Source: Chiloscyllium plagiosum
Taxonomy: Eukaryota
DNA: 64,000 nt
Direction of reading: 5' to 3'
Assembly (NCBI RefSeq): GCF_004010195.1
Contig: NC_057718.1
Coordinates: 75,736,275-75,800,274 of the forward strand
Shown: piece by piece, positions 6,380-61,660 of the stretch
How positions within the stretch are numbered: position 1 is the first letter of the stretch
How the letters are laid out: the number at the start of each line of letters is the position of its first letter
Made by a program: the position numbers and the translations under genes
The notes under the pieces: generated by a model
Told to the model about the DNA's origin: nothing
Seen by the model: the letters and a program-made list of their open reading frames with translations, nothing else
The model's database searches: none

Positions 6380-7010
6380 CTTACCTGAGAGGAACACAAA
6401 GATGATTGTCAGAGAGGATCATGCATTGAGGAGAGATTAAGAAGACCAGGCTTATAGTGTCTGAAATTTAGAAGAATGAGGGTGATCTAATTGAAATACA
6501 TAAAATTCTGAAAGGCCTGGGTGGGTTAAATGCTAAGAGGCTATTTTCCTAGATGTAGAATGTAGAAGCAGTGACGACAATATCAAGATAAAGAGTCAAC
6601 TATTTAGGTCAGATATAAGTAATAATTTCTTAATAGGTGAAAGTGAGTACTGCAGATGCTGGAGATTAGAGTCAAGAGTGTGGTATTGGAAAAGCACAGC
6701 AGGTCAAGCAGCAACCAAGGAACAGGAAAATCGATGCTTTGGGCAAAAGCCCTTCATCAAGAATGCCTGATGAAGGGCTTTTGCCCAAAATGTCGATTTT
6801 CCTGCTCCTCGGATGCTGCCTGACTTGCAATAATTTCTTAATAGAGAGGATTCAGAATCTTTGGACTTCTCTACCCTAAAGGCCTGTCGACATTCAGTCA
6901 TTAAAATCAACAAGGTAAAATTTATATTCAACACTGATAAATGGGGTCTTAAATCCAAAGAAAATAAAGGATATAGAAATTGGACAGGAAAATGCAGCTG
7001 AGGTCTACAC
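6380..7010 (+). mobile_element. Degenerate CR1 LINE 3' fragment (host of mini-element)
   Basis: tttagaagaatgagggtgatctaattgaaa...taaaattctg (RRMRGDLIE motif). Confidence 0.7.
6637..6828 (-). mobile_element. Penelope-derived fold-back mini-element with two divergent hammerhead cores
   Basis: 16-bp TSD AATAATTTCTTAATAG at 6621-6636 and 6829-6844; gggcaaaagcccttcatca...ctgatgaagggcttttgccc. Confidence 0.85.
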
Positions 7011-10446: not shown

Positions 10447-10579
10447 ACAAATATTTACCCCTGACTAATGCACCGTTAGGTGCATTAGTCAGGGGTAAAT
10501 ATTGGATAAAAGGGTAGGGGTCTGGGTGGGTTACTCTTCAGAGGGTCAGTGTAGACTTGTTGGGTCGATGGGCCTGTAA

Positions 10580-31006: not shown

Positions 31007-31653
31007 AATCTCGACGTCAATTTTTGACAGACCATCCATCTCCTCTTGACAGCTTAGGAGAAACAGCTGAAGAAAATGTTGCCACACCATTATTAACAAG
31101 TGACATCTCACAAGCCCAGATGTCAGCAACAGACAGTTTGACAGATCAAGAGCCCACTCCACTCAAATTTACAACACCAAAAACAACAACCACTCAACGT
31201 AGAAACTCATTAACAGGCTCTCCAGTTTCATCCCTGCCAGTAGCTGTTATGCTGCCAACCTCTGAACAGCTTCACTCTACAGGCAGGAGTCAGTTGGACG
31301 GTGAGACCAATATCTCTCCCAATGTGCTGCTCACAACTGCTGCTCCTCAGAATTCCAGTAATGAAACTACAGGTTTTGAAACAGGAGAAGAAGATATTAG
31401 AGATGAATTTATTATTGGGGATACAGAGACTGTAGGCAGCACAGACATACTGGATGGAGGTAAGCATAGTACTTCCTCCATCACATCTCCGCCTCCTCTG
31501 AAATATTTAACATCAAGCTCCTTGACGTCTGCTCCCTCTAAAGAACTGGTGGTGTTCTTCAGTTTACGAGTCACTAACATGTTGTTTTCTGAAGACCTTT
31601 TCAATAAGAGTTCCCCGGAATACAGGACACTGGAACAACAATTCCTTCAACTG
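31007..31653 (+). CDS. impg1: IMPG1-like exon: end of mucin region plus start of SEA2 ([38 protein letters not shown])
   Basis: tttcatttcag acceptor, CTG|gtaagt donor, phase 1 to 0. Hallmark IMPG SEA2 sequence. Confidence 0.96.
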
Positions 31654-33408
31654 GTAAGTGAATGGCTTTACAGTGTTTGGAATAATTTAGTCCTCCAGTA
31701 TTTGGTTCTCTATTCTCAGGAGGCAGGTGGACATATGTGTAAGAATCCTTTTAAGAATTATGAATTTGCAATAATACATAGACTAACAAGTTACCATTTG
31801 TGCAGCACTCCCAAAGTTTCATTCCATTTGGAGAATATATAACAAGTTGAAACATCACCATTTTGCACCATTGTCAAAAGTTAGATTTAGTTTCCCCACA
31901 TGTGTATCTAAAGTCAATTGCTTTTGATACTTCCACATTGACCCAATGTAAAATGGTTGTATCTACATACTGGTCTGGGAATATATATGGGCAATGGCAA
32001 CAATAGAAGCAGAGCAATGTCTACAGAGAATTTCACTTAGAAAAGTTCAATATGGTAGCCTAATCTCCCATACTCTGAAGTTCACTTGGATAACTTCCAA
32101 CCACTTTCCTCCTTTAGTGCCCTTTAAAACCAAATTCTTAATTTATTTTTTTAAAGAACTACAACTACTGCATGTGAATCCCTTTAGGCATTTCACTATT
32201 ATATACAATGTACAATGTTTACGCATATTTACACACCACAATATTCATGTAGTTTTACACTTGCAATTTCATTCAGTCAATTTCCGAAGTACAGTGCCCT
32301 CATCATACACACCTTCATCTAGTCATCTTCCATGAAATATCAGCACAGACTTTAATGATGGAAACAAATACAATATGCAATCGAGAGTATCAAGGTTAAT
32401 CGATAGTCCATCAGACCTCAGTATGCCTGGATAATATCCCAAGTCTATTGTTCTGTACATACTTCTACACAACTTGCAAACTGATTTAATAATTTGCATT
32501 ATAAACAGAAATGAAACTGGCAACTATGTAAGGAAGGTTGTTAGGTTTTCAAACATTAAGCATCAGTGATATGTTTCAGGATGAAAGATACCTGGCCAGC
32601 AAAATTTATTGTACAAAATGTGAAAAGTAAATTGACTAAATCTAGTCCATTGTGAGAAAGTTTTGAACCAATAAAGTCATTGTAAAAATGTTAACAAGGC
32701 TAATCAAGTGTATTGAAATGCAATTGAATATAAATTAATCAGATGAATTTAAGCTCCACAATCTGATTACTAATAAAGCCAAATGTGATATGCAAGTTGT
32801 AGTTAAAATAATAGCTAGATAACTGAATATTAAGATATCAGAATTATCTGGAGAAGCACAATGAGATGAACATATATGCAATGGAGAAAACAAAATGGGG
32901 AGGAGACATACACCTGGTATTAAAATAAAGTCAGGATGATCATAAATGTAACTAGGTCCAGGCTGTTCTAACACTCTCTGATGCAGCAACTATCTGTAGT
33001 CCAGCACCCATCAAACTTCCCTTTCTCCCTGTTATAATGTCTAGTGGCCTGCTCTGACCTTTATTCATACTACTTTTTAGTTAGACTTTATTCAGTTTCA
33101 GTACTGTCTTTTTATATCCAAAATCATTCATCTATTTGTTATGTGATTGATTAAAGTCAAGCTGAATTATTTTCTTTTGAAGTGTTTGTGCATTGAATAT
33201 ACATGATCTCCCATATGCCAGCAAATTCTGTGATCTGGCAAAAGCCTAATCCCGAGACTCCCAGATTAAGAAGGAACAAGATGTATTTTAATTTAAATTA
33301 TGATTTGCTACAGAAAGAAAACAAAATTACCAATGCTTGACATTGTTTTCATCAATGTGTTGCTGGAAAAGTGCAGCAGGTCAGGCAGCATCCAGGGAAC
33401 AGGAAATC

Positions 33409-33436
33409 GACGTTTCGGGCATAAGCCCTTCTTCAG
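33409..33436 (-). ncRNA. Minimal hammerhead ribozyme core
   Basis: Reverse complement is CTGAAGAAGGGCTTATGCCCGAAACGTC. Confidence 0.78.
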
Positions 33437-33491
33437 GAATGAGGAAGGTTTGTCCAGCAGGCTAAGATAAAAGGTAGGGAGGAGGGCTTTC

Positions 33492-33519
33492 CTGAAGAAG
33501 GGCTTATGCCCGAAACGTC
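33492..33519 (+). ncRNA. Minimal hammerhead ribozyme core
   Basis: CTGAAGA-A-GGGC-TTAT-GCCC-GAAAC-GTC. Confidence 0.78.
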
Positions 33520-34579
33520 GATTCTCCTATTCCCTGGATGCTGCCTGACCTGCTGCGCTTTTCCAGCAACACATTTTCAGCTCTAATCTCCAGCATCTGC
33601 AGACCTCACTTTCTCCTCATTGTTTTCATCAATCCATGGGCCATAGATGCCTCTGCCCTTAAAAGTATTGGTAGCAGAGACTGCAGCATTGTCCTTATGA
33701 GTCAAAGACTCTTCTCATTCTGAGGACTCCTTCCACTGTGTAGTGTGGCATTACAACAATACTAAATGGAACAAATGCAGAACAAATTGGGCATCTTGAA
33801 AATAAGCATCCTTGAGGCATTATGGGCCATCAGCAACTGTAGAATTTCACCACAATTTGTATGTTCTTGGCCAGAATAGTCCTCACTTTAACATTACTAC
33901 CAAACAAGGGAACATGCAGCACGAGGCATAACTAAAAGTAAGGTGCCACCTAGTGAAGATACAACACAGGGTTGTTTGCATGCTAGCTATTGGTACACCC
34001 AAGCAATTCCACAACTAATGGAACATATGGAAGCACTTCAATCCTTCCAACTAGAGACGGAGGCTCCAAAACATGTCCATCTTTGACAATGGAAGTGTCT
34101 TTAGCATAGCTGTGCTGGGAAAGGCTCACAACCGTGTTCAGTCAGCAGATGATCTATCATTAAGAAGACATCAGGATCACAATGTAAGTCTTTAACAAAT
34201 TTGATTCAGTCCATGTTATATCAAAAAATGACTGAACATTTTGGATATAGCAAAAGCTATGAGCCCTAACAACATCACAACTGTGGTGCACCAGAATTAT
34301 CTATAGCCATAACCAGATAGATCCAGTACAGAGACAGCTGTGACATCTATTTGACAGGGTGGGAAATTGATGCAGTATTTCTTGTCCACAGGAAACAGAA
34401 CATATTCAGTTACCATAATGTGATATCAGCCTACTTTTAGTCATTAGCAGAATGACAAGATGTGCTGTCAACAGTGCTGTCAAGTGGCACTTACTCAGCA
34501 ATAAATTACTCACTGATGCTCAGTTCAGGTTCTACTGGAACACTTGACTTCAGACTTCATTTCAGCCTTGATTCAATAA

Positions 34580-35345
34580 AGTAGAAGTTGTTGAAAAAGT
34601 TCAGCAGGTCTGGCAGCATCTGTGAAGAGAAATCAGAGTTAACATTTTGGTTCCAGTGATCCCTTCCTCAGAATTAATGGCAGCTAGGAAAATGGTGGTT
34701 TATATGCAGAAGGTAGGGTGGGGGGAGGGGTAAGGAATAAACAATAGGTGGGTATGGGGCCCAAAAGAGAGAGAAGAACAGTTGGACAGGCAAAAGAGTG
34801 AATAACAATCTGACTAAGAGAGTGAATAGCTGTTACTGGAGACTGTTAGTGGCTAACAATAGGCAGTATAATGGTAGACTCCATGATATCAAGGCCTGGT
34901 GTGTGGGGTTGGGGGCTAGGACATGGGACAGCTCATGCCCTAAAATTATTGAACTTGAATTAAGTCCAGAAGGCTGCAGGGTCCTCAAGCGGAAAATGAG
35001 GTATTGTTCTTCCAGCTTGTGCAGAGCCTTGCTGAAACACTGCAGCAAGCCTGAGAGATATGTCGGCCAAGGAACAGGGTGATGTATTAAAGTGGCAGGC
35101 AACTGGAAGCTCAGGGTCTTTTCTGCGAACAGAATGTAGATATTCTACTAAGCGGTCACCCAATCCATGCTTCAATTCCCCAATGTGGAGGAGACCACAT
35201 AGAGCAGGGAATGTAGTGGACTAGATTGTGTGAAGTGCACGTCAAGTGCTGCTTCACCTGGAAGGTATGTTTGGGGCTTTGGATACTGAGGAGGAAGGAG
35301 GATAATGGGCAGGTGTTACACCTTTGGCGATTGCAGGGGAGGGGC
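34580..35345 (-). mobile_element. Penelope-like GIY-YIG and 3' end remnant
   Basis: GLGDRLVEYLHSVRRKDPELPVACHFN; KLEEQYLIFRLRTLQPSGLN; decayed hammerhead near 34640-34672. Confidence 0.85.
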
Positions 35346-36100
35346 ATAAAATAGTATTTGACCGAACTTGTTGTCTGGAGTCCTTTATAAGATTAAAGTC
35401 AATGGAAAAAAAGAAAGATAGTTGTATGTTGGAGGCCAATTCAAAGATATATTGTAGGAATTCCTCAGGGTAGCATCCTAGACCTATCCATCTTCAGTTG
35501 CTTCATCCCAGAAAGAAAAGCCAGTAAAACACATTGGTCTGACAACATAGAGCTCCAGTATGTTTATTTCCAAATATTATTGTTCTTTTACTGGTTTTAC
35601 ACACAAATCATCCTTTGTGTAGCGAATTTGCCACTCATGTCTTTTTTAAATCTGTTTCCTCTCACCTTAAAAATATGCCCCCCTAGATCGAAACCCCCCA
35701 TCCTAGAGAAAAGACACCTACCATTAACCCTATCTATGATCCAGGATAACGCATACCACTTGATCAGCATCCCACCCAACAAGTTAAACATTTACTTGTT
35801 TGAATACCACCACATTATGGCTCTACTAACCAGCCAATCGTCAGAACTCCTTCTATCAGCACTTTTCAAATGAGTGACCTCTACAAATCTTTGGATGTCA
35901 AGGACAGCAGCCACATAAGAACCTCACTATCTGCAATTTTCCCTCCAAATCAAAATCAGGCTAACTTGGAACTTTATCATCATTTCTTCACTGCTGCTGA
36001 GTCAAAAAGCTGGAACAATCTCCCTAACAGCATTGTGGGTGCACCTGTACGAAATAGATTGCAGCAGTTCATAAACACAGTTCACCACAGACTTCTCTAG

Positions 36101-36385
36101 GGGCAGCACGTTGGCACAGTGATTAGAACTGCTACCTCACAGCACCAGGGCCGCGGTTGACTGTCTGTGTGGAGTTTGCACATTCTCCCCTTGTCTGCGT
36201 GGGTGTGGTCTGGATTCCTCCCACACTCCAAAGATATGCAGGTTAGATGAATTGGCCATGCTAAATTGCCCATAGTGTTAGGTGCATTAGTCAGAGGGAA
36301 ATGGGTCTGGGTGGGTACTGTTCCGACGGTTGGTGTGGGCTTGTTGGGCTAAATGGCCTGTTTTCATACTGTAGGGAAACTAATC
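36101..36385 (+). mobile_element. HE1-like SINE
   Basis: gggcagcacgttggcacagtgattag followed by the SINE body. Confidence 0.85.
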
Positions 36386-38199
36386 ATAACTAGTGAAGGG
36401 TAGTAAATAACATCCCAAAATGAGTAAATTAAGAAAAGCTTTTAAATTGAGTTATTTAAAACAGTAATGTGATTCAGTAGAAGATAAATCAAGCAAATAT
36501 TCCCTGTAGTGCAGAAATTTCAGAATTAAGGGGTATAATCTGAAAACCAGAACTTGGCCATTCAGGGGTGAAATCAGGAAGCACTTCTTTACACAAAGAT
36601 CAATCAAAAGCAAGAGCCCTCACACCAATAAGACTAAATGTTTAATCAATTTTAAAAACTTAGAATATTGAGATGGATAGATTTTGTTGGTGAAAGGCAT
36701 CAAAGAATTTGAAGAAATGGGTAAGTGAGTTTGAAAACTGCAATGTTCTGATTGACAGAACAGACTCAAGGGCTGAATGACCTTTGCCTGTTCTTACTGA
36801 AGATTGTATACTGAGGAAGGAACACACAACTTATATTTATGATTATTCACGTTCCTCAGTAGATTTAATAGATTGGGAGATTAGGTGTCAGCACCTTGGA
36901 AGGAACTGCCACAAGTGTGCAAATTGTTTGGTATGCAAATCCAGCTGCAAGCACATTTATCACAAGGATTTTTCTTATTTAATCAAGTCTATTACTATGC
37001 AGACTAATTATTTGTGCCTATCCAAAATTTCAAGCAATTGTATGTAACATATTTCCACTTAGACAACGGCAATACAGTTATCCTATAAATTGTAAGATGA
37101 CTTGATCTATAAGAGGATATTAACTTCACATTGACAGATATCCTACGTTTGAGTCTTGAGACTGTCAGCTGTATTTGATATATTTGGCTTCTAACTAATA
37201 ATGCATACCCACTGGGGAAGATTGGTATTGTGCATTCAAATCTCTCACAACAAATGTGGAATAGTGGAGGACAATTTAGACAGAAACCAGTCAAGAATGG
37301 AAAGTAAGTGTGGGATCACTTAAAATAAAGGCAGCAACTGTAGTCTTATGACCTTACTACCATAATCTGATATTGACCTGTCTTTTGAACAGGCAAACAG
37401 TTTGGTCTGGGACACATACACACACACACAGACACACGCACAGTCTTTTGGGATAGCAATATTAGTAAAAGGTTTAAGCAGGAAAGCAAGGACAGTTTCT
37501 TCATTAAGTTACACATGACAGTGTTTGACATGACAGGTGAATCTGCCAATTTCAAAAAAGACTGAGGCAAGTAAAGATTTACAAGTTTTAGTTTAGATTT
37601 CCATACAGACCAAAAGTTCTTCCTGATTACATAATGAGGCTCCCTTTGTGCACAACTGTCCCTCTTTTCCCAAAGATAAGCATTCCCTCCATTACTTTGC
37701 TGATTGTCAGAGGTTCCTGCTGGTCCTTAGCTGGAGAATCGTGCTCTCCAAATTCTTGCTTTCCTCACTAATCAAATAAACTGAGTTGAAATTTCAGGTC
37801 CCACTGGACAGGTTCTGATTTTGGAGGTAGAACACAGACTACAAGCACTATGAGGGATACACCAGTGAATGGATTTGGTCAAATGCAGTGAGCCCTAAGG
37901 AATAAGCTGTGCCCATGTAAGTGAGTGGTGTAGAGTGAGACTTTACCATTGGCATAGTACGGGTTGTGAGGAGAGTGGGCAAATGTAATGGACAATCCAA
38001 GTGATCCTCACCTCACTGCATGGGCATAGAAGTAGGTTGTCACTGACAACAAGAAATCATGTTTCAGATTTTGGGTCTAGTCATGTTGAGGAGCAACACT
38101 TCTGCAGGAAGGGCTGACCTCTTTCAACAGGAGGGCCCAGGAGAGAAACACACAGGATAGAATATAATGATATCATCAGTATAGTCTGTCCTGGAAAAT

Positions 38200-39180
38200 G
38201 TGGTGCTATACCTGGTGATAATTGAGAACTAGTGATGGAGGAGACGGCAATTCTCCAGGGAAATGCTCTCTGAGATTTCTGATCTCATCACCAAAGACCT
38301 CACATCTCACAACACAGCACAACCCTGCCAGTAGCATCAAAACATTGCAGTCTTGAACATTTTTGCTTCTGATTTTCTACAAGATCAGCTCTAGACTTTG
38401 GTTGCATCTTACAAATGCATGCAAACCACTGTATCTCATTGGTCATTGACATCCTACTTGCCAGAATTGGACCACGCATTCATTTCCAGATACTCAGTGC
38501 CTTGCTGGCTCTAAAAGCAGGGGGTTCCACTTCCAACGTTGCACTTGCGGGGAATACAGAGAATCATTTCTTTAATCTATGCAACTATTAATATCTCCAC
38601 AGGAAGGCCTTCCATTCCCTCAATGTCCAATAAGTCCATGATCACAACAAGAGCTTCCAACATGTATGCACTCATTTTCTGGCAGCTAACATTATTGTCT
38701 TATCAGTCTATGCTGGTACAGCTCTTCACTTCAAGCCGCAACTTCTGCTAGTGGTTCTGAGGGGATAAGGGAAACTCCTTGAAGAGATGCCTACTCATTC
38801 CATTACAAGAGGCAAAGTTACATGAATAGAGGTAATGCAATCAAAGCCATTTACTCACTTGGAGCAGTACTGAACTGGCCATCTGTTTTCTGAAGGTATG
38901 GTTCATATGCTTGGCTGGTTAGGTGGCACACTGCAACTTTCTCCTGTAAGATTCTCACCCATTGTGATGCTCTGCTGCACTCTCCATAACATGATCCTGC
39001 AGAATGTTGCAGCGTGCATAAAAGGTACAACCCTGCAAGGACACAACTCATTGGAGAAAGAGGAGCAGGACATGGAGGAGGAGGAGGCAGTGATAGATAA
39101 CTACGCAGGGTGGTGGCCAGGCCTGCCCTGAGGCTTGAAACCCTGATCAGGATGCCGTCAACATCAGAAATCATCTGATT
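38200..39180 (+). mobile_element. PIF/Harbinger (HARBI1-like) transposase remnant
   Basis: Broken motifs AVLNIFASDFLQ, GDKGNSLKRCLLIP (consensus LGDKGYPL..WLMTP), MLCCTLHN plus acidic tail. Confidence 0.7.
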
Positions 39181-39769
39181 CAAGCCACTGAGCTCCTGTA
39201 ACCCAGGATGAGCAGCATTGACTGCAACTCTCTCTGAGCCAAAAAGGATGGTGCCAACACTACCATTGCAAATACAAACTGGCACACATAAAGTGTCACC
39301 ACAAACCAAGGGTGCACAACCGCCCAGATGTTTCACTGTCACCTTTGATGTACACCTCCTCTCCTTCACCACTTTATGCATTTGTTCTTATTCCACCATT
39401 AAGAAAGGGAGTTTCACCTGTATTCCAATCCATTTGCGAAAGTGCTCTGATTCTCAAGCCCACTGTTCCTGGGTTTGCCACAGCATTTAATTATTTAATC
39501 AAGGCACGAAAATCGCTAATTAATCTGTCTGTTGGAATCAAGTTAACAGGAAATAGTGAGCAGCTTGCTGTACTTAACACAAACTATTCTTTATTATAAA
39601 TAGGTAAATTCTAATCATGACTAAATAGCTAGGAACTATCAAGATACTAGTTAAAACTTTAACCTCCTATTTAAAAGCCACTGCATGCTCATAGATATAG
39701 ATAGACACAAATGAGTAAAAACATTGATTTATTGGGTGGAGGGTATTCAAAAGCACAGTCCACAGAGCT

Positions 39770-40225
39770 AGAACATAGAACATAGAACAGTGCAATAACT
39801 GGCCATTCGGCCATGGTGTTGTGCCGGACATAACACCAAATTAAACTAATCATTTCTGCCTGCACTTAGCCAAAATTCCTCCATTCCTTGTATATTCTTG
39901 CGCATACCTAAAAGCAGCTTAAATGCCCCTAACATATCTGCCTCCACCACCACCACACTAGCAGCATATTCCAGACATCTGCCACTCTCTGTGTAAAAAG
40001 ACTTGCCCCTCACATCTCCTTTGAACTTGCCCCGTCTCACCATAAATGTATGCTCCCTAATATTAGACACTTCAACTCTGGGAAAAAGATTCTGATCATC
40101 AACCCTATCTATGCATCTCATAATTTTATAAACTTCTATCAAGCCTCTCCTCAACCTCTGCCATTCCAAAGAAAACAACTTTAATTTTTCTAGCCTCTCC
40201 TTAAAGCTCATACTCTCTAATCCAA
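39770..40225 (-). mobile_element. CR1 LINE 3' end
   Basis: ERLEKLKLFSLEWQRLRRGLIEVYKIMR; (TTCTATG)n tail. Confidence 0.88.
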
Positions 40226-41795
40226 TTCATTGAGTTCACTGAGATGTTCTTTTGACTCACCAGCACGTCTATTTTCCCTTTCTCTAGGTTCTTTCGTGAC
40301 TTTCAGGGGGCACAAGCAATTGATACATGAGCTACAAAGTTTCTTAGTTTACTGGTTAATAGCAACAGCTTACAGCAACTGGTAGGAGAAAACAACTGGT
40401 TTCTCCAGGCTGTACCTACTTTTACTGTACAGAGGGAGAGAGAGAGAAACTACCTGCCGTTCCAGCAGTCTGAAGGCTTCTCAGTAAATCAGTCAGACTC
40501 ATGAGCTGTTTATTGAAATCCCCCATACAGTGTACTTTTTGTGCCCTTTCTACCCTTAGTGCTGCACAGATTTATCAATCGAGGGTAGGTGGTATATAGT
40601 AGTCAGCAGGAAGTTTCTTTATCTGTGTCTGACCCGGTGCTATGAGACTTCACAATGTTCGGAATCAATGTTGAAGACTCTTAAGGCAGTTGCCTTCCCT
40701 TTGTATACCAATGTGCTACCACCTCTGGTGGGACTGTCATTCCAGCCAGAGAAAGTGAGGACTGCAGATACTGGAGATCAGAGTCGAAAAGTGTGGCACT
40801 TGAAAAGCACAGCAGGTCAGGCAGCGTTCGAGGAACAGGAGTATCGCCCCTTCACCAAGGGCTTATGCCAATCAACATGTCCAGAGATGTTACTACACAC
40901 CTCTGCTACAGGTCAGGCTTGAACCAGACCCTCCTGGTCATAGGAAGACTTGCTATTGCTGCACCACAGGAGCCCATAAGTGATAGAGGTCACAGGTTTG
41001 AAAGACCACCAACCTACACCCAAGTCAATTAAGGAGTGCCCATGTGAAATGTGAGCCCACTGGCTGATCTCTACCAACCAGTCCTCACCCAACCATTTCT
41101 GGAAATGATTCTGACATCTTCTATCCCAAGAGGTGAGTCCGATCCAATTGTCTGTTAGGAGTCCATGATGTTTATTGAAATAATGTTGGATATCCATTGC
41201 CCAATTTATGGATTGCCTTTACCATGAAGATGCCATTTAATCTCCCAATTACAGAATTATATCTGACCAAAATAAATGAGGAAAACAAAAAATAGAAAAA
41301 GAAAGCTACACTCATAGAGTGCATCCTACATCCTCAGGTCATGCTGAACCCTGTATGGTAGGATTTATTTTTTTCTGAAAATGTTGCTATTGTTGTAATG
41401 TAGGATTAGATTGTTCATGAGCAGGTTGACACAATGAACAAGTAACTGTTTTTTTCAGTTCTATTCATTATGGGATAAATGTTAACCAGAACACCCCTTC
41501 ACCATCATATCCAGTTTTTGAATGTTATGAAATATTTTACACCCAGCTAAGTGGACTGCTGAGGCTTCAGTTTAAACCTTCATAGCAGTTTCCACATTGC
41601 AAGTCTGCTAAAGAACTGTATTGGATATTTCAACATAAAGCATGTATTGAAGTCTGTCAAGAATGATGTGAACCCATGACCATCTAGCAATCTGCTACCA
41701 CTAATGGATAAAATAGTAAATATCCTGGAAAATACCAGTTAAGTGGAATTGGGATAGACTTATTTGAAGGTAATGATTTTTCTTTGTCTTTGTAG

Positions 41796-45729: not shown

Positions 45730-47200
45730 AATGTAACTGCATTATTTAGGAAAGGTGGAAGGAAGAAATCAAGAAATTAAAGACATGCTAGTCTAACATC
45801 AGCTGTTAGGGGAATTATTGGAATCTACAGTTAAGGAAAGAGACTGAGCACTTTAAAAAAAAGCTTTGAGCTGATAATGAAGTGCAGACATGGACATATA
45901 CAGATGTAGTCATGTCTAACAGACTTAAGTGATGCTTTTTTGTGGAAGAAACTAAAGTAGTAAGCAGAGACTGGCAATCATTTTAGTTTATATCAGCTTC
46001 TCAAAGGCATTTGAGAGGGTTCACATAAAAGATTGTAGTTAAAATTAAAGATCATGGAATTTAAGATAGATTATTGATCTACCTTGGAGTCTGTAAGTGG
46101 CATCAGGAGACTGGGAAGTCCAGGAATAATGGATACATGCTCAAATTACAAGGAGAGACAAGTGGTGGCCCGCAAGGATCTATGCTGACGTCTTAACTTT
46201 TCATTAGTCATCCATAATTTATTAATAGACTTAAATAATGTAACATGGAACCATCCACCTGGATTTGTCAATGAGACAAAAATTGGTACACAGTAACTTG
46301 GGTTGGCTAAATCATAAAATAACAAGACATTTTCGCTTAAGTGAGTGGATAAACTTCAGCAGATGCATTTCAACATGGATGTTAGTCTATTAATTTTTGT
46401 CTAAATGTAGATTGATTCAAGTGTTAATGAACTGGTGAAATGTTAGAAACAATAGGGCTCCATTTGAGGGAGGGACGGTGGCTCAGTGGCTGGCACTGTT
46501 GCCTCACAGCAACAGAGACCCAGGTTCGATTCCCACCTCGGGCAACTGTCTGTGTGCAGTTTGCACATTCGTCCCATGTCTGCATGGGTTTTCTCCGGGT
46601 GCTCCAGTTTCCTCCCACAATCCAAAGATGTGCAGGTTAGATGAATTGGCCATGTTAAATTGCCCATAGTGTGGGGGGACGTGTAGGTTAGGTGCAGTAG
46701 ACTGGAGTAAATGTAGCGAAGTGGGGGAATGGGTCTGAGTAGATTAGGCAGCGGAGGGTCAGTGTGAACTTGTTGGGCTGAAGGGCCTGTTTCCACACTG
46801 TCGGGATTCTATGATTCAAAGAGATCCAAGAATCAATGTACGCAGATCAATAGAATGTAGCAGTCAATGGAAACATAATCCAAAAGGCTGAAGACTGGTC
46901 CAGAAATGTTCACTCTACTTTCTATCCAGAGGTGCTGCCAGTCCTACTGAATTTCTCCAGCAATTTCTGTGTTGTATAAAAATATAGATCTTAGTTAGGT
47001 GCCCATAAGTGTGTAAGGCATAAGAGCAGAATTAGGCCATTTAGCTGCTTCACCATTCTATCATGCCTTGATAAATCTCTCAACCCCATTCTCCTATCTC
47101 CTCCCTGTAACCCTGTGAATGGAGTTAAATATACAAATTAGCCCTGATCGCATAAAATGATGGAACAGGCTTAAGGAGATGAATTACCTACTCTTGTTAC
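45730..47200 (+). mobile_element. Highly decayed CR1 RT remnant with nested HE1-like SINE (46468-46817)
   Basis: agtggtggcccgcaaggatctatgctg (SG.PQGS); SINE A/B boxes tggctcagtgg / gttcgattcc. Confidence 0.75.
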
Positions 47201-48752: not shown

Positions 48753-50977
48753 GTAATGTCAAACCTTTTTTAAGGTACTGCATTTTCTTTTTTTGAATTC
48801 TCCAGAATGCCTTTTTTTTAATGGATTTTTTTTCCATTTTTATTCAAGTGAAATTTTTTGAATTAGTTTTCTTTTCTCAAAATGGATGACAATGGACAGA
48901 AGTGCATGATTAGAACATTTATAAGCCATGCCAAGTTACAATTTAGTGACATACCTATGAAGCAACAAGAGTAGCTGAACATTCACTTTGGACAAAGTTG
49001 TTCAAACTATCATCAGACTACGAAAGGTACACAGTTAATTTGATTATGATGTATACATTAAAACACAACAGTGTGCAATCCAATAAAACACAAATACCTT
49101 GTGGATTTCCAACATTGTGCTCACGAACTTGGTCAGAAAACAACAAATGCTGAAAATTACAGCATCCATGGAGAGAGAGTAAGCTAACGTTTTGAGTTAG
49201 AGTTGGGGGAAAACATTTATGCTATAGTTTGAGGAGGTGGGGGTAGTGGATGTAGGGTGCTGACGGTGAAAAGATGTTAGTAGTTTACATTAAGCGATTG
49301 GAATGTGAGAATGACGAAACAATGGTGTGTTTCTTGCTAGACTTGAAAGAACAGTAAGTGGAATGGGGGGAGGGGAAGACAAGCTAAAAGAAAGGGAAGG
49401 AATGGGAGTTGGTTCACAATTTAAAGGTGCTGAACTCAATACTAAGTCCAGAAGGCTGTAAAGATCCTCGTCTGAAGATGAGATGTTGTTCTTTCAGTTT
49501 GTGATGGGATTCATTTGAATACTGCAGCATGCCAAGGATAGACAAGTGGGCATGCGAGCCGGATGCTGTGTTAAAGTGATCAGCACACAGACCGGAGGTG
49601 TTCCACAAAGTGGTCACACAGAGCGCAGTGAACACAATGCACAAAATTGGAGGAGGTACAAGTGAAATGCTGCTTCACCTGAAAAGGCTGTTTAGGGCCT
49701 AGGATGGTGAGCAGGGAGGAAGTGAAGGGACGGATGTTGCATCTTTTGCCGTTACATGGGAAGGTGCAGTGGAGAGGGATCGTGTTGGTGGTTGTGGAAT
49801 GGACTAGGATGTCCCAGAGGGAACAATCCCTACGAAATACAGACAGGGGGAGTGAGGGAAGGATTTGTTTGGTGCTGGCATTCTGCTGGAGTTGTCTGAA
49901 ATGGTGGAGAATGATCCTTTGAGAGCCCTGTCAACCACAGTGAGTGGGAAACCATGGTTAAGGAAGAAGCAAGCCTGTACAATCCCCATCCACCACCACT
50001 CTCCTCTGCTTGGCTGAACTTGTTCTATCACTGAACAATTTCTCCTTTAATTCATCTCACTTCTGCCAAGTCAAAGGAGTAGCTATGGGCAGCCACATGG
50101 GTCCCAGTTGTGCCTGCCTCTTTACGGGGTATGTGGAACAATCCTTGTTCCAGTCTTACACTGGCCCCTCCCACAGCTTTTTTCTCGATACATGAACAAC
50201 TGCTTCGGTGCCACTTCATGCTCCTGCCAGGACCTTAAAAATTTCATTCATTTTTCCTCCAATTTCCACCACTCACATTGTCAATTTCTGACACTTCCTG
50301 TCCTTTTTTGACCTCTCTATCTCCATTTCAGAGACTAAACTGTCCATTCCATCCACTACAAAGCCATTGACTTGATAAGTACCTTCACTACGACTCGTCA
50401 GACCCCATGTCCTGCAAGAATTCCATCCCATTCTCCCAGTTCCTTGGCCTATGTAGTACCTATTCAGATGATTCTACCTTTCAAAACGGCACTGCTGATA
50501 TGGCTTGCTTCTTCCATAAACGTGGTTTCCCACCCACTGTGATTGACAGGGTCCTCATGCGTATCTGACCTATCACCCATGCTTCCATCCTTGCCCCTTC
50601 CCGTCACTCACGACAGTGTGGTTGGCTTCCCCTTGTTGTCACTTTTCACCAGCCTCCACATTCAAAGGATCATTCTCCACCATTTCAGACAACTCCAGCA
50701 GGACGTCACCACCAAACACATCCTCCCCTCACTCCCCCGTCTGCATTTCGCAGGGATTGTTCCCTCCAGACATTCAAATCCATTCCACAACCACCAACAC
50801 CACTCCCTCTCCACAGCACCTTCCCATGTAACTACAGAAGGTGCAATATCTGTCCCTTCACTTCTTCCCTGCTCACCATCCAAGCAGGATCCTGACCTTC
50901 CCACATCCGGTCACTTTAACAGCGTCCAGTCCTCAGCATGCTGCAATGTTCCAATAAATCACAGTGCAAACTGGAAG

Positions 50978-51940
50978 TGTTGATGTCCATTTTTTTTTCC
51001 ACAAATCCAGACGACACGTTTTCTGTTCAACAATGGTAGCTTTATTATCGGACAGCCGGCACTAACGTCACTAAAGTAGCTGAGTGCCTACTTGTAGCGG
51101 CTCTTCTTCACGAATTTCTGCATTACATCCAGAGACAGTATATTTTATAGGAAGTTGAACAAAGACTTATCAGTCACATGGATAATTGACATCACATAAC
51201 TTAAAGTAGACAATTAAGATTTTAGAAAACCTGATGATTGCTGATAATGTGTTGCTGGAAAAGCGCAGCAGGTCAGGCAGCATCCAGGGAACAGGAGAAT
51301 CGACGTTTCGGGCATAAGCCCTTCTTCAGGAATGAGGAAAGTTTAAACATCGATTCTCCTGTTCCCTGGATGCTGCCTGACCTGCTGCGCTTTTCCAGCA
51401 ACACATTTTCAGCTCTGATCTCCAGCATCTGCAGTCCTCACTTTCTCCTCAAAACCTGATGATTGTCAATGTCCTGAAATAATGTGTGAATGGACTATAG
51501 AAATCGATTATTATATCTTCCGTGATTATGTGTTAATGGAAAGGAATTAAGGCAGAAAGGTTTTGCCTGCTATAAATGGGGAACTCACATACCTACGCTG
51601 ATATGGAGGTGGGGTAACTGGGGGGATTCACATACCTATGTTAAAATGGAGGGGAAGTGAGAGAATGGGAGACGGAGGCAGCTAACTGGATTGGGGCCAG
51701 CGTTATTAGTCCTGTCTGGAAAGGACAAAGGTCTTGTCTAGGCTTACTTGCATGGAATGGGGGAATCCGCATGTGTGGATTGAAAGAGTTCAGGCTTTCA
51801 GTTGCTGTTGCAGCAAGTTTTTTTGGTAGTGGGATTTTTAAGCTTAATGTCCCCAATGTGCCCTGAAAGAGAAGCAAAGGATGGAACTGACATTCCCCCC
51901 ACCCTCCTCAACCTCCCCCCGTGACATTTTAACTTCATCA
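50978..51940 (-). mobile_element. Putative solo LTR inserted in the Penelope element
   Basis: TGTTGA...TCATCA termini, 4-bp TSD GAAG (50974-77 and 51941-44). Minus-strand TATAAAA (51143-49) and AATAAA (51041-46). Host sequence resumes across it. Confidence 0.72.
51241..51450 (+). mobile_element. Fold-back mini-element with intact minus-strand hammerhead (51302-51329)
   Basis: 15-bp TSD AAAACCTGATGATTG at 51226-40 and 51451-65; arms near-identical to the 33357 element. Confidence 0.88.
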
Positions 51941-53594
51941 GAAGACCAACATCTCATCTTCATTCTAGGCTCTGTACAGCCTTCTGGACTTAATATTGAC
52001 TTCAGCTCCTTTAAATTGTGAACCGACTGCCATTTCTTTTAACTTGTTATCATGTCCTCCCCTCCCCCCACCCATTCCACTTAATGTCCTTTCAAATCTG
52101 GCAGGAGACACATCATTGTCAGCCATTCTCACAATCTGATCACTTAATCTGGACTAGCGATATCTTTTCTCCATCAGTCCCCTACACCCTTTACCCACAC
52201 ACTACCCCTCCTCAAACTATTGCATCAATACTGTCCCCTCCACACTTCATTTCAGCTCTGATGAAGAGCCATCTGGACTCAAAACATTAGCTTGCTCTCT
52301 CTCTATGGATGCTGTGATCTCCAGCATTTGTTGTTTTCAGTATTTTTTCCAGCATCTGCAGGAATTTGATCCTTACACCCAGTTCAGAAACAATATTTCC
52401 ATCTTTTATGAAAGCTGCTAACTGTTTTTATTATCTCAACAAATGTCTCTCTTGATCTCCCCATCCTACTCCTCTCCCACAAATGTAACAACCTCAATTC
52501 AGATACTCAACTTGAGGGGGCTAGACTATTAAAACTCATGAAAATTTAATCCAACAGTAACCCATATTTTACAATAAGAAAATTTGTAGAATATGCCAGC
52601 TTTTATGTTTTCAAATGCATAAGATGCAACTGTTTTGTTTTACAAACCAAGTATAAAACTGTGGTCTGATTCCTCGAACTCACAATGGCAGCTGTGCCAT
52701 TATCATGCCATTGATTAGTCCAGAGACGTGAGATGACGATCCGCAGATTTTGGGGTAACCTAAAAATGTTTAGATCTAATGTGTTGCATTTTAGAATGTG
52801 GATGCTTACCACAGTATCAGATTCCCTTATCCATTATGTTAATATGAGCAGTAATAACTGAAATAATGCCTCATTCATATATATATAATGTGATCCAGAA
52901 GGCAAAGTGTGAGTAAAGATTTAATAATTACCTTTTAATATGATATTGCCCATCCCTCAACCCTACTCACACCTAATTGGTACATTTTGGCAAGACGAGA
53001 GATAACCTTGGAGAAGTCTTAGATGATCCAGGTGATATTCAACTCTTCAAGTAGATTTAATTCCAATTCAGGATGCTGTGTGGTTTGGGGAGGATGGTGT
53101 TGCCACGTATCTTTCACTTTCTGGATGACAGAAGTCATAATTTTGGAAGGTGCTACCAAAGGAACCTTGGTGAATTGCTGTTAAGTGTCTTATAGGTTGC
53201 ACACAATGCTGCCGCTGCATCAGTGGTGAAGGGAGTGAATGTTGAAGGTGGGTGATGGGGTGCTAGTCAAGTGGGCTTATCACTGGACTAGTAATCCAGA
53301 GTCCAGGTCCTGGGACATAGGTGCAAATTCCAGAGCAGCAAGTGGATTTTGAATTCAATGATTAAACCTGCTAATACCATTGACAATGGTCATGATGATG
53401 ATCATCAATTGACATAATACCTATCTGGATTAGCTCTATATTTTAGGGATGTAAATCTGCTTTCCTTACCCATAAAGACTACATTTGACACCAGAGCTGC
53501 AGCAGTGTAGTTGATTCTTAGAAACCTGCTAAAATGGCCTTGCAAGCCACTCAGTTCAAAGGCTTCTGGCATGAGCAACAGTATTGCCCACATT

Positions 53595-60836: not shown

Positions 60837-61660
60837 TTTTATCCAATAATTGCCCAATGCCCTTTTGAATGCCTCAATTGAACCAGCCTCCACCACACTG
60901 CCTGGCAATGTGTACATATCCTAACTAGTTCCAAAGTGAAAAGATTTTTTCTCATAGATCATTGTTTCTTTTGTAAATCACTTTAAATCTATGTCTTCTC
61001 ATTCTTGTTTCTTTTAAAAGCAGTAACAGTTTCTTCCTCTCTCCTCTATCCAGCCTACTTATGATTTTGAAAACCTTGATCAGAGTTCCTTTTAACCTTC
61101 TTCTCTCTCAGGGAAACAATTCCAGTTTCTTCAACCTATCCTTGTAATTGAAGTTTATCATGTCTGGAATGATTCTTATAAATTGCTTGTGTGCTCTGTC
61201 TAATGCATTGACATCTTTCCTGTAATATGACACCTAGAAATGTACACAGTACAGTTGAGATCTAACAACTGCCTTGTAGCTGTATATAGTTCCAATATCA
61301 GACACAACTTAGCCAGGCTCCTCAAGTCAATTGATATTTTTTTTAAAATTATTCAAGTGAAGGTGCAAATATTCCTAATGTTTCCCTGAGAGAGAAGAAG
61401 GTTAAAAGGAACTCTGATCAAGGTTTTCAAAATCATAAGTAGGCTGGATAGAGGAGATAGGAAGAAACTGTTACTGCTTTTAAAAGAAACAAGAATGAGA
61501 AGACATAGATTTAAAGTGATTTGCAAAAGAAACAACGATCTATGAGAAAAAATCTTTTCACTTTGGAACTAGTTAGGATATGTATACATTGCCAGGCAGT
61601 GTGGTGGAGGCTGGTTCAATTGAGGCATTCAAAAGGGCATTGGGCAATTATTGGATAAAA
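60837..61660. repeat. 282-bp near-perfect inverted repeat of a CR1 3' fragment (arms 60837-61118 and 61379-61660)
   Basis: Arms are reverse complements with about 4 mismatches by eye; 260-bp spacer. Confidence 0.95.

Follow-up and report, generated by a model that had tools for sequence, protein, structure and literature searches.

Is a hairpin that carries a hammerhead ribozyme core on each strand, lodged in an intron of a shark gene, a small mobile element in its own right or a product of the insertion of a larger one, and can its ribozyme act on the host transcript? These questions are raised by an insert of 261 bp in the 64,000 nucleotides of Chiloscyllium plagiosum DNA that we analysed (hereafter, the window). 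The first-pass annotation had read it as a young fold-back mini-retroelement, a recently mobile unit either retrozyme-like or an ultra-truncated Penelope, that places a sense-strand core in the IMPG pre-mRNA. The exon ending at position 31653 best matches IMPG1-like proteins (Chiloscyllium plagiosum 96%, Hemiscyllium 89%, Stegostoma 81%), whose exons map in order on the + strand. Protein exon mapping and Pfam, which found one family, SEA, among nine fragments of the window, delimit a host intron of 10,142 bp (31654-41795, + strand) that splits the second SEA domain and holds the insert 1.7 kb from its donor. Because IMPG1, a retinal-matrix gene, lies on the + strand, the + strand hammerhead core is sense to its pre-mRNA, as had been claimed. 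We give a probability of about 0.82 to the following reading: a single, species-limited insertion of two 5′-truncated terminal-repeat pieces of an abundant Penelope-like element (PLE) family, set head to head within a 16-bp target-site duplication (TSD), likely by the family's RT/GIY-YIG protein, with the hammerhead as a passenger that is predicted to be silent.

The insert (33357-33617) lies between the two copies of an exact 16-nt direct repeat (33341-33356 and 33618-33633, spacing 277), for which the chance of an exact 16-mer across 40x40 placements is, as a rough figure, ~7e-7. Its two arms are inverted repeats that pair over 51 nt at 96% on the outer side (33354-33404/33525-33575) and over 35 nt at 100% on the inner side (33405-33439/33489-33523); over the full overlap 84 of 87 columns agree and 3 differ. 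The insert folds with z = -16.5, and none of 200 shuffles was equally stable. The left arm is an inverted, 5′-truncated PLE end without a tail (33354-33486, - strand), which overlaps the left copy of the repeat by the last 3 nt of the latter and keeps its core with the native upstream strand. Its upstream 47 nt (33440-33486) are unique to this arm. A reading of the central 49-nt “loop” as a spacer was rejected, given that 33440-33486 is element sequence prolonging the inverted arm: agreement with a sister copy at 51246-51344 (96 of 99 columns overall) takes in the first 12 nt of this stretch, and other copies, which leave a loose end at 33486, extend past this point with shared sequence at an agreement of 0.76-0.81 in three sequencing runs. 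The right arm is a forward PLE end (33489-33617, + strand) that runs from 3 nt before the hammerhead C3 through an unpaired tail of 42 nt (33576-33617), found in this arm only. Loose ends of other copies pile up at 33572-33577 and at 33617, that is, at two 3′ ends about 40-45 nt apart. The junction between the arms falls at 33487-33489 and is ambiguous by 1-3 nt. Since each arm has sequence that is missing from the other, 47 nt upstream in one and a 42-nt tail in the other, and likewise in the sister copy B described below, neither arm is a plain copy of its partner. From this anatomy we concluded that the insert is two 5′-truncated PLE ends placed head to head and not a fixed mini-element.

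Four of the 24 sequencing runs listed were compared with the window, three of DNA type and one of RNA (X21). In organism B, a related species (run X11), a contig of 1,950 nt aligns with 32700-33340 and then with 33618-34300 with no letters in between, its flanks differing at 46 of 1,324 aligned window letters (3.5%). This empty site has one copy of the repeat, so the 16-bp repeat is a true TSD, and together with the sister copies it rules out a chance repeat or an assembly artefact. If the first C of the repeat is counted as the last base of the element, as in copy B, the TSD would be 15 nt with inverted ends; the same four letters would then end both predicted primer ends, which is not so in copies B and C. 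PLE TSDs in the window are 67-88% AT. Insertion after the lineage of organism B had branched off is the most likely history, the other possibility being an old polymorphism. In two other samples of the source species, organism A (runs X5 and X6), unbroken contigs run from 33597 and 33596, respectively, across the right repeat into the unique flank. They fit a filled allele, with 21-22 letters on the element side, below the 31-letter rule; of the joint rows, 15 of 692 were listed. The left-flank contig of X5 (32928-33355) ends its alignment at 33355 with 20 letters unaligned beyond, for which either a small variant of the junction or clipping within the repeat may account; the depth of X6 is low there. 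Compared with sister B, the closest copy in the window, the insert differs at 3 of 99 columns in the inverted arms and at 4 of 105 in the forward arms, that is, at three positions in either arm, with a further change that only the sister carries. The insertion is therefore young in the sense of being species-limited, with no sign of continued segregation. The earlier description of the element as recently mobile is only partly borne out, given the differences from its closest sister and the filled right junction, seen over a short overlap, in two other samples. The 261-bp insert with its 16-bp direct repeat, in turn, was correctly described.

A profile built from 18 window segments yielded 23 matches in the 64 kb, 22 of them at E<0.001, and 69,422, 67,820 and 60,455 contigs carried the family at an identity of at least 88% in the three DNA-type runs. 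The family is thus very abundant in both species, contig counts not being copy numbers. Two sister insertions were found by sequence comparison. Sister B (51226-51465) belongs to the same subfamily (96-99%) and has the same layout within a 15-bp TSD, with a different junction, at which there is an 8-nt palindrome, and a forward arm without most of the core. Sister C (6621-6844) is older (83%) and shows the same layout in the opposite orientation within a 16-bp TSD. Sister B lies inside the span of an old head-to-head PLE unit of another subfamily (49136-52360) with long RT/EN remnants on both strands. Two further inverted structures were noted in the window: a 282-bp inverted repeat (60837-61118 and 61379-61660, 98.6%) of LINE-like RT 3′ sequence, in which no TSD was found and which resembles a recent inverted duplication, and a 54-bp near-perfect palindrome (10450-10503) inserted beside a SINE-like repeat.

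Remnants of coding sequence adjoin sister ends. A decayed partial tandem of a related PLE (1-1746, + strand; protein matches and terminal-repeat alignment) contains, in order, a hammerhead end (49-76), an RT-thumb remnant (113-697), a CX4CxxC linker with a GIY-YIG remnant (998-1368) and a second hammerhead end (1646-1746). Compared with the forward arm of the insert, its two hammerhead ends show identities of 83% and 77%, and its remnants match full-length RT and GIY-YIG proteins; of four long proteins among these, Pfam recognised RVT_1 in three and GIY-YIG in all four, several of the Pfam matches lying below the curated cut-off. The tie of the insert's own subfamily to an RT/GIY-YIG protein would accordingly pass through sisters of 77-83% identity. 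Three sister remnants (998-1108, 35341-35204 and 49930-49586) have the CX4CxxC linker, and no tie of these to the insert's own subfamily was found. According to PMC8557442 (this and the other papers cited are represented by excerpts), a CX2-5CxxC linker between RT and EN is a mark of Neptune/Nematis and is absent from Penelope/Poseidon, so the linker of the sister remnants appears to point to Neptune/Nematis. The frames of the insert gave no matches by blastp to the PLE-like proteins retrieved, pattern scans of viral, metagenome and genome contig collections returned no loci, and a protein search with the RT-thumb remnant 56-409 retained none of 30 candidates, that with 50569-50895 in Atlas giving no usable match. 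The end of a skate protein whose annotation reads “receptor-transporting protein 3-like” consists of a PLE-type linker plus GIY-YIG; this protein may be a host-PLE fusion or a gene-model artefact.

The core of the hammerhead, CUGAAGA-A-GGGC-UUAU-GCCC-GAAAC-GUC, spans 28 nt and is identical on both strands. Motif match and alignment place the sense copy at 33492-33519 (+ strand), with helix II at 33500-33511 and the predicted cut after 33519 (C17), and the antisense copy at 33409-33436 (- strand), with C3 at 33436 and C17 at 33409. Because both cores lie inside the 35-bp perfect inverted repeat, their identity is one observation and not two. The features of a minimal type I hammerhead are present, namely the conserved core, the extra nucleotide after A9, G10.1-C11.1 and the palindromic 15.2-16.2, and CpGs are intact within the cores, the left arm differing at one CpG outside the core. 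In the sense core, helix I has only 2 pairs, because the junction replaced its upstream strand and with it took away the fourth pair; in the antisense core, three of the four pairs form, the third position being a U-U mismatch that is native to the subfamily. Neither core reaches the ~4-5 bp expected of helix I in minimal type I hammerheads, and sister subfamilies have covarying 4-bp helices. On all these points the first-pass annotation was accurate: the identical cores with their CpGs, the cut position, the weak helix I and, as the sisters and the motif features support, the derivation from an ultra-truncated Penelope-type element with a minimal type I hammerhead.

Covariation was examined in 12 arms, one per unit, from five subfamilies by our own grouping (out of 15 arms, three were excluded because their insertion was already represented by its other arm, and the decayed arm at 46888 was dropped). 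Anchors were set by the core motif, with one anchor corrected by eye, and core-nucleotide conservation across window copies was not counted as evidence, given that anchoring required those bases. Watson-Crick pairing occupied 33 of 48 cells in helix I, against at most 15 when the strands were slid by 1-3 columns, and 36 of 48 in helix II, against at most 20. This level was reached by 0 and by 1 of 5000 shuffles, respectively, in a test that ignores relatedness, so that related copies inflate its significance. Both helices show several pair types per column. Helices I and II covary across the sister subfamilies. The 15.2-16.2 pair, blurred by CpG decay, showed no excess over shuffles (2028 of 5000 reached the observed value, before the anchor correction). 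The covariation likely reflects selection in past active lineages, not at the IMPG1 locus. An Rfam scan, which the first-pass annotation had proposed, found no hammerhead among 12 hits at E<=10, as we would expect of a motif without helix III. Its best hits, to generic microRNA-hairpin models (MIR6136, 51.5 bits against a gathering threshold of 99), were rejected as hairpin matches. The MIR6136 consensus shares letters with the helix II/GAAAC side (window 33406-33521) beyond being a hairpin, and that family might derive from a fold-back hammerhead element. Overall, the hammerhead is real as a motif.

Whether the motif can fold as a ribozyme in this setting was addressed with folding energies, which are equilibrium predictions that leave proteins out. 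The ribozyme-compatible fold is predicted to cost 40.8 kcal/mol on the + strand and 44.8 kcal/mol on the - strand in context, and 33.5 and 32.0 kcal/mol, respectively, in the nascent prefix; for the forward arm alone the cost is 1.0 kcal/mol. The high cost reflects the order of transcription: whichever strand is read, the antisense copy comes ahead of the core. In context, helix II of the sense core has a predicted probability of ~1e-14. The model thus predicts that the sense core is sequestered by the inverted copy and that cleavage of IMPG1 pre-mRNA is not to be expected, since the antisense arm is made first and would form pairs at 84 of 87 positions of its overlap with the arm that holds the sense core. 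Silence is also predicted because helix I has only 2 pairs and no dimer partner lies nearby, the 64-kb window containing no intact sense-strand partner core near the insert. In RNA run X21, 2,585 of 12.96 million records are family reads, on both strands. This run, of polyA single-cell chemistry and covered to ~2 in 100, gave neither reads in the unique flanks nor an accumulation of molecule ends, and we take it to speak neither for nor against expression or cleavage at the locus.

How, then, would two truncated ends come to lie head to head? Given PLE identity, we favour double priming somewhat over the other route considered. Staggered nicks 15-16 nt apart in AT-rich DNA would release two 3′ ends. 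One of these would prime reverse transcription at the tail end of the element RNA; the second would do so 42 nt further upstream, at an internal site with a 3-nt microhomology to the TSD. Early termination of both cDNAs would be followed by the joining of their truncated ends. The hairpin would likely have been assembled during insertion and not copied from a 261-bp master, and the hammerhead motif was likely selected in ancestral active elements.

The principal rival to double priming is self-priming, in which a single template or cDNA folds back on itself and the tail is cut from one arm as the endonuclease resolves the intermediate. In its favour, palindromes found at inverted junctions led to this proposal for rotifer PLEs (PMC3846280), the tail has been ascribed to EN resolution (PMC8557442), an 8-nt palindrome lies at the junction of sister B, and sister C is compatible with either route. 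Against it, the arm lacking the tail extends further upstream than its partner in both the insert and sister B, which a single snap-back cannot produce without trimming, and two RT start sites that define the tail have been shown in vitro for another PLE (PMC11167929). Self-priming with trimming fits the data too, and we consider it the less probable of the two.

The stop points of arms elsewhere in the family bear on how these joints arise. Other copies yielded 692 rows of joints; all 14 of the skip-type joints among the 15 listed differ from each other. In 10 of these 14 one arm stops at 33436-33440, where helix I has its front edge, no more than 4 nt upstream of C3, and none of the 14 lies at the predicted cut. 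Copies with this exact junction align without a joint and fall outside the joint count, so that a small subfamily with a fixed junction may exist. Window arms at 6760, 6767, 18999, 23562, 23566, 33492, 59176 and 63956 likewise start just upstream of C3 and not at the cut. In three sister subfamilies (1646, 15856, 52258) an AG follows a pyrimidine-rich run 2 nt before C3, and the insert's subfamily lacks this AG; it recalls the Penelope of D. virilis, in which an intron ends at helix I (PMC4209133). Among the joints listed (15 of 692 and 12 of 604), a few are head to tail: one leads from 33617 to 33519 (X6, depth 472) and another from 33579 plus 3 nt to 33520 (X5 and X6), the latter perhaps a microhomology with the tail. 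Both restart within 1 nt of the predicted hammerhead cut. A third backward joint among those listed, from 33440 to 33409, fits a 4-nt microhomology. A bolder version of double priming combines these observations: both nicked strands would prime separately, from start sites 42 nt apart, on RNAs whose 5′ ends lie at the front edge of helix I, and the minority tandem joints at the predicted cut would be the first sign in genomic sequence that RNA cleaved by the ribozyme is used as a template in vivo. We regard this combination as doubtful.

It is very improbable that the insert is a non-autonomous fold-back mini-element or retrozyme, with a 261-bp unit that is transcribed, undergoes processing by its own hammerheads and then integrates anew. 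This reading, the bolder one of the first-pass annotation, draws on a discrete, TSD-bounded unit with intact cores, on the family reads on both strands of X21 and on the derivation of animal retrozymes from PLE terminal repeats (bioRxiv 10.64898/2026.07.22.740005). It is opposed by a layout that is head to head and not a head-to-tail tandem, by the lack of a second copy with the same junction in the window, by junctions that vary elsewhere, in sisters of 96-99% identity as in the 692 joint rows, and by the predicted sequestration of both cores (+41 and +45 kcal/mol). A fixed, MITE-like fold-back element was rejected, its centres differing among near-identical sisters and in 14 of 14 listed skip-type joints, a count into which copies with the same junction do not enter. 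Least credible of all is a sense core co-opted to act on IMPG1 pre-mRNA, alone, in trans or with the help of a protein: such a core is sense to the gene, matches the minimal consensus and has a filled right junction in two other samples, and an anole PLE hammerhead is protein-assisted (PMC11167929), but here the antisense arm precedes the core in the transcript, leaving helix II its predicted probability of ~1e-14, helix I has only 2 pairs with no intact sense-strand partner core nearby, and organism B does without the insertion.

Taken singly, the locus is of small weight, being one of very many truncated PLE ends, intronic and with a ribozyme predicted to be silent. It is nevertheless a clean, dated specimen, with an empty site and arms of distinct sequence, for the way in which PLEs build head-to-head insertions and for the role of the hammerhead. 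What interest is left lies at the level of the family, in the stop points of the arms and in the small number of tandem joints with a restart at the predicted cut, matters that the whole family answers better than one copy.

Complex insertions of EN-positive PLEs have been described as a pLTR with an adjacent inverted, 5′-truncated copy, a tail of 30-40 bp and a TSD (PMC8557442, PMC3846280). In comparison with these descriptions, the insert shares the hammerhead pLTR, the head-to-head inverted truncated copy, the tail on one arm, a TSD confirmed by an empty site and an AT-rich target; it differs in consisting of two terminal pieces only, with no ORF, and in a tail of 42 nt. Its TSD of 15-16 bp compares with 8-10 bp in the rotifer PLE examples given. 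Metazoan minimal hammerheads (min-HHRs) occur as motif pairs 100-700 bp apart on opposite strands, solo motifs being ascribed to truncated PLEs, and in vitro minimal PLE hammerheads were inactive as monomers and of low activity as dimers (PMC4209133). The insert resembles the motifs of that paper in its core, the extra nucleotide after A9, G10.1-C11.1, the palindromic 15.2-16.2 and a short helix I, and departs from them in a helix II of 4 bp, against 7-8 in Schistosoma, in the U-U in helix I and in cores 56 nt apart. Sharks are not among the min-HHR hosts named in the excerpts of PMC4209133.

For the protein of the anole PLE, cleavage and extension of both strands have been shown, with reverse transcription starting at two tail-defining sites (PMC11167929). 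Like Poseidon PAc of Anolis carolinensis in that account, our family has two 3′ ends a tail apart, an ATG in the helix II region and an AT-rich target; both predicted primer ends of the insert would moreover end in AAT if the TSD is 15 nt, a single case. Unlike PAc, sister ORF remnants have the CX4CxxC linker, which PMC8557442, as excerpted, describes as absent from Penelope/Poseidon. A non-LTR retrozyme is a head-to-tail tandem with a hammerhead in each unit (bioRxiv 10.64898/2026.07.22.740005). With animal retrozymes as described there the insert shares its non-coding nature, a type I hammerhead and an origin from PLE terminal repeats, whereas in place of a tandem it has one head-to-head pair with cores facing opposite ways, and it is not a retrozyme. 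The literature searched, through its listings, yielded no paper on head-to-head PLE stubs in sharks, so they may be undescribed in this lineage. The layout itself is already in print in the excerpted accounts (PMC8557442, PMC3846280, PMC4209133, PMC11167929), so that the insert is an ordinary case within an established class of PLE insertions.
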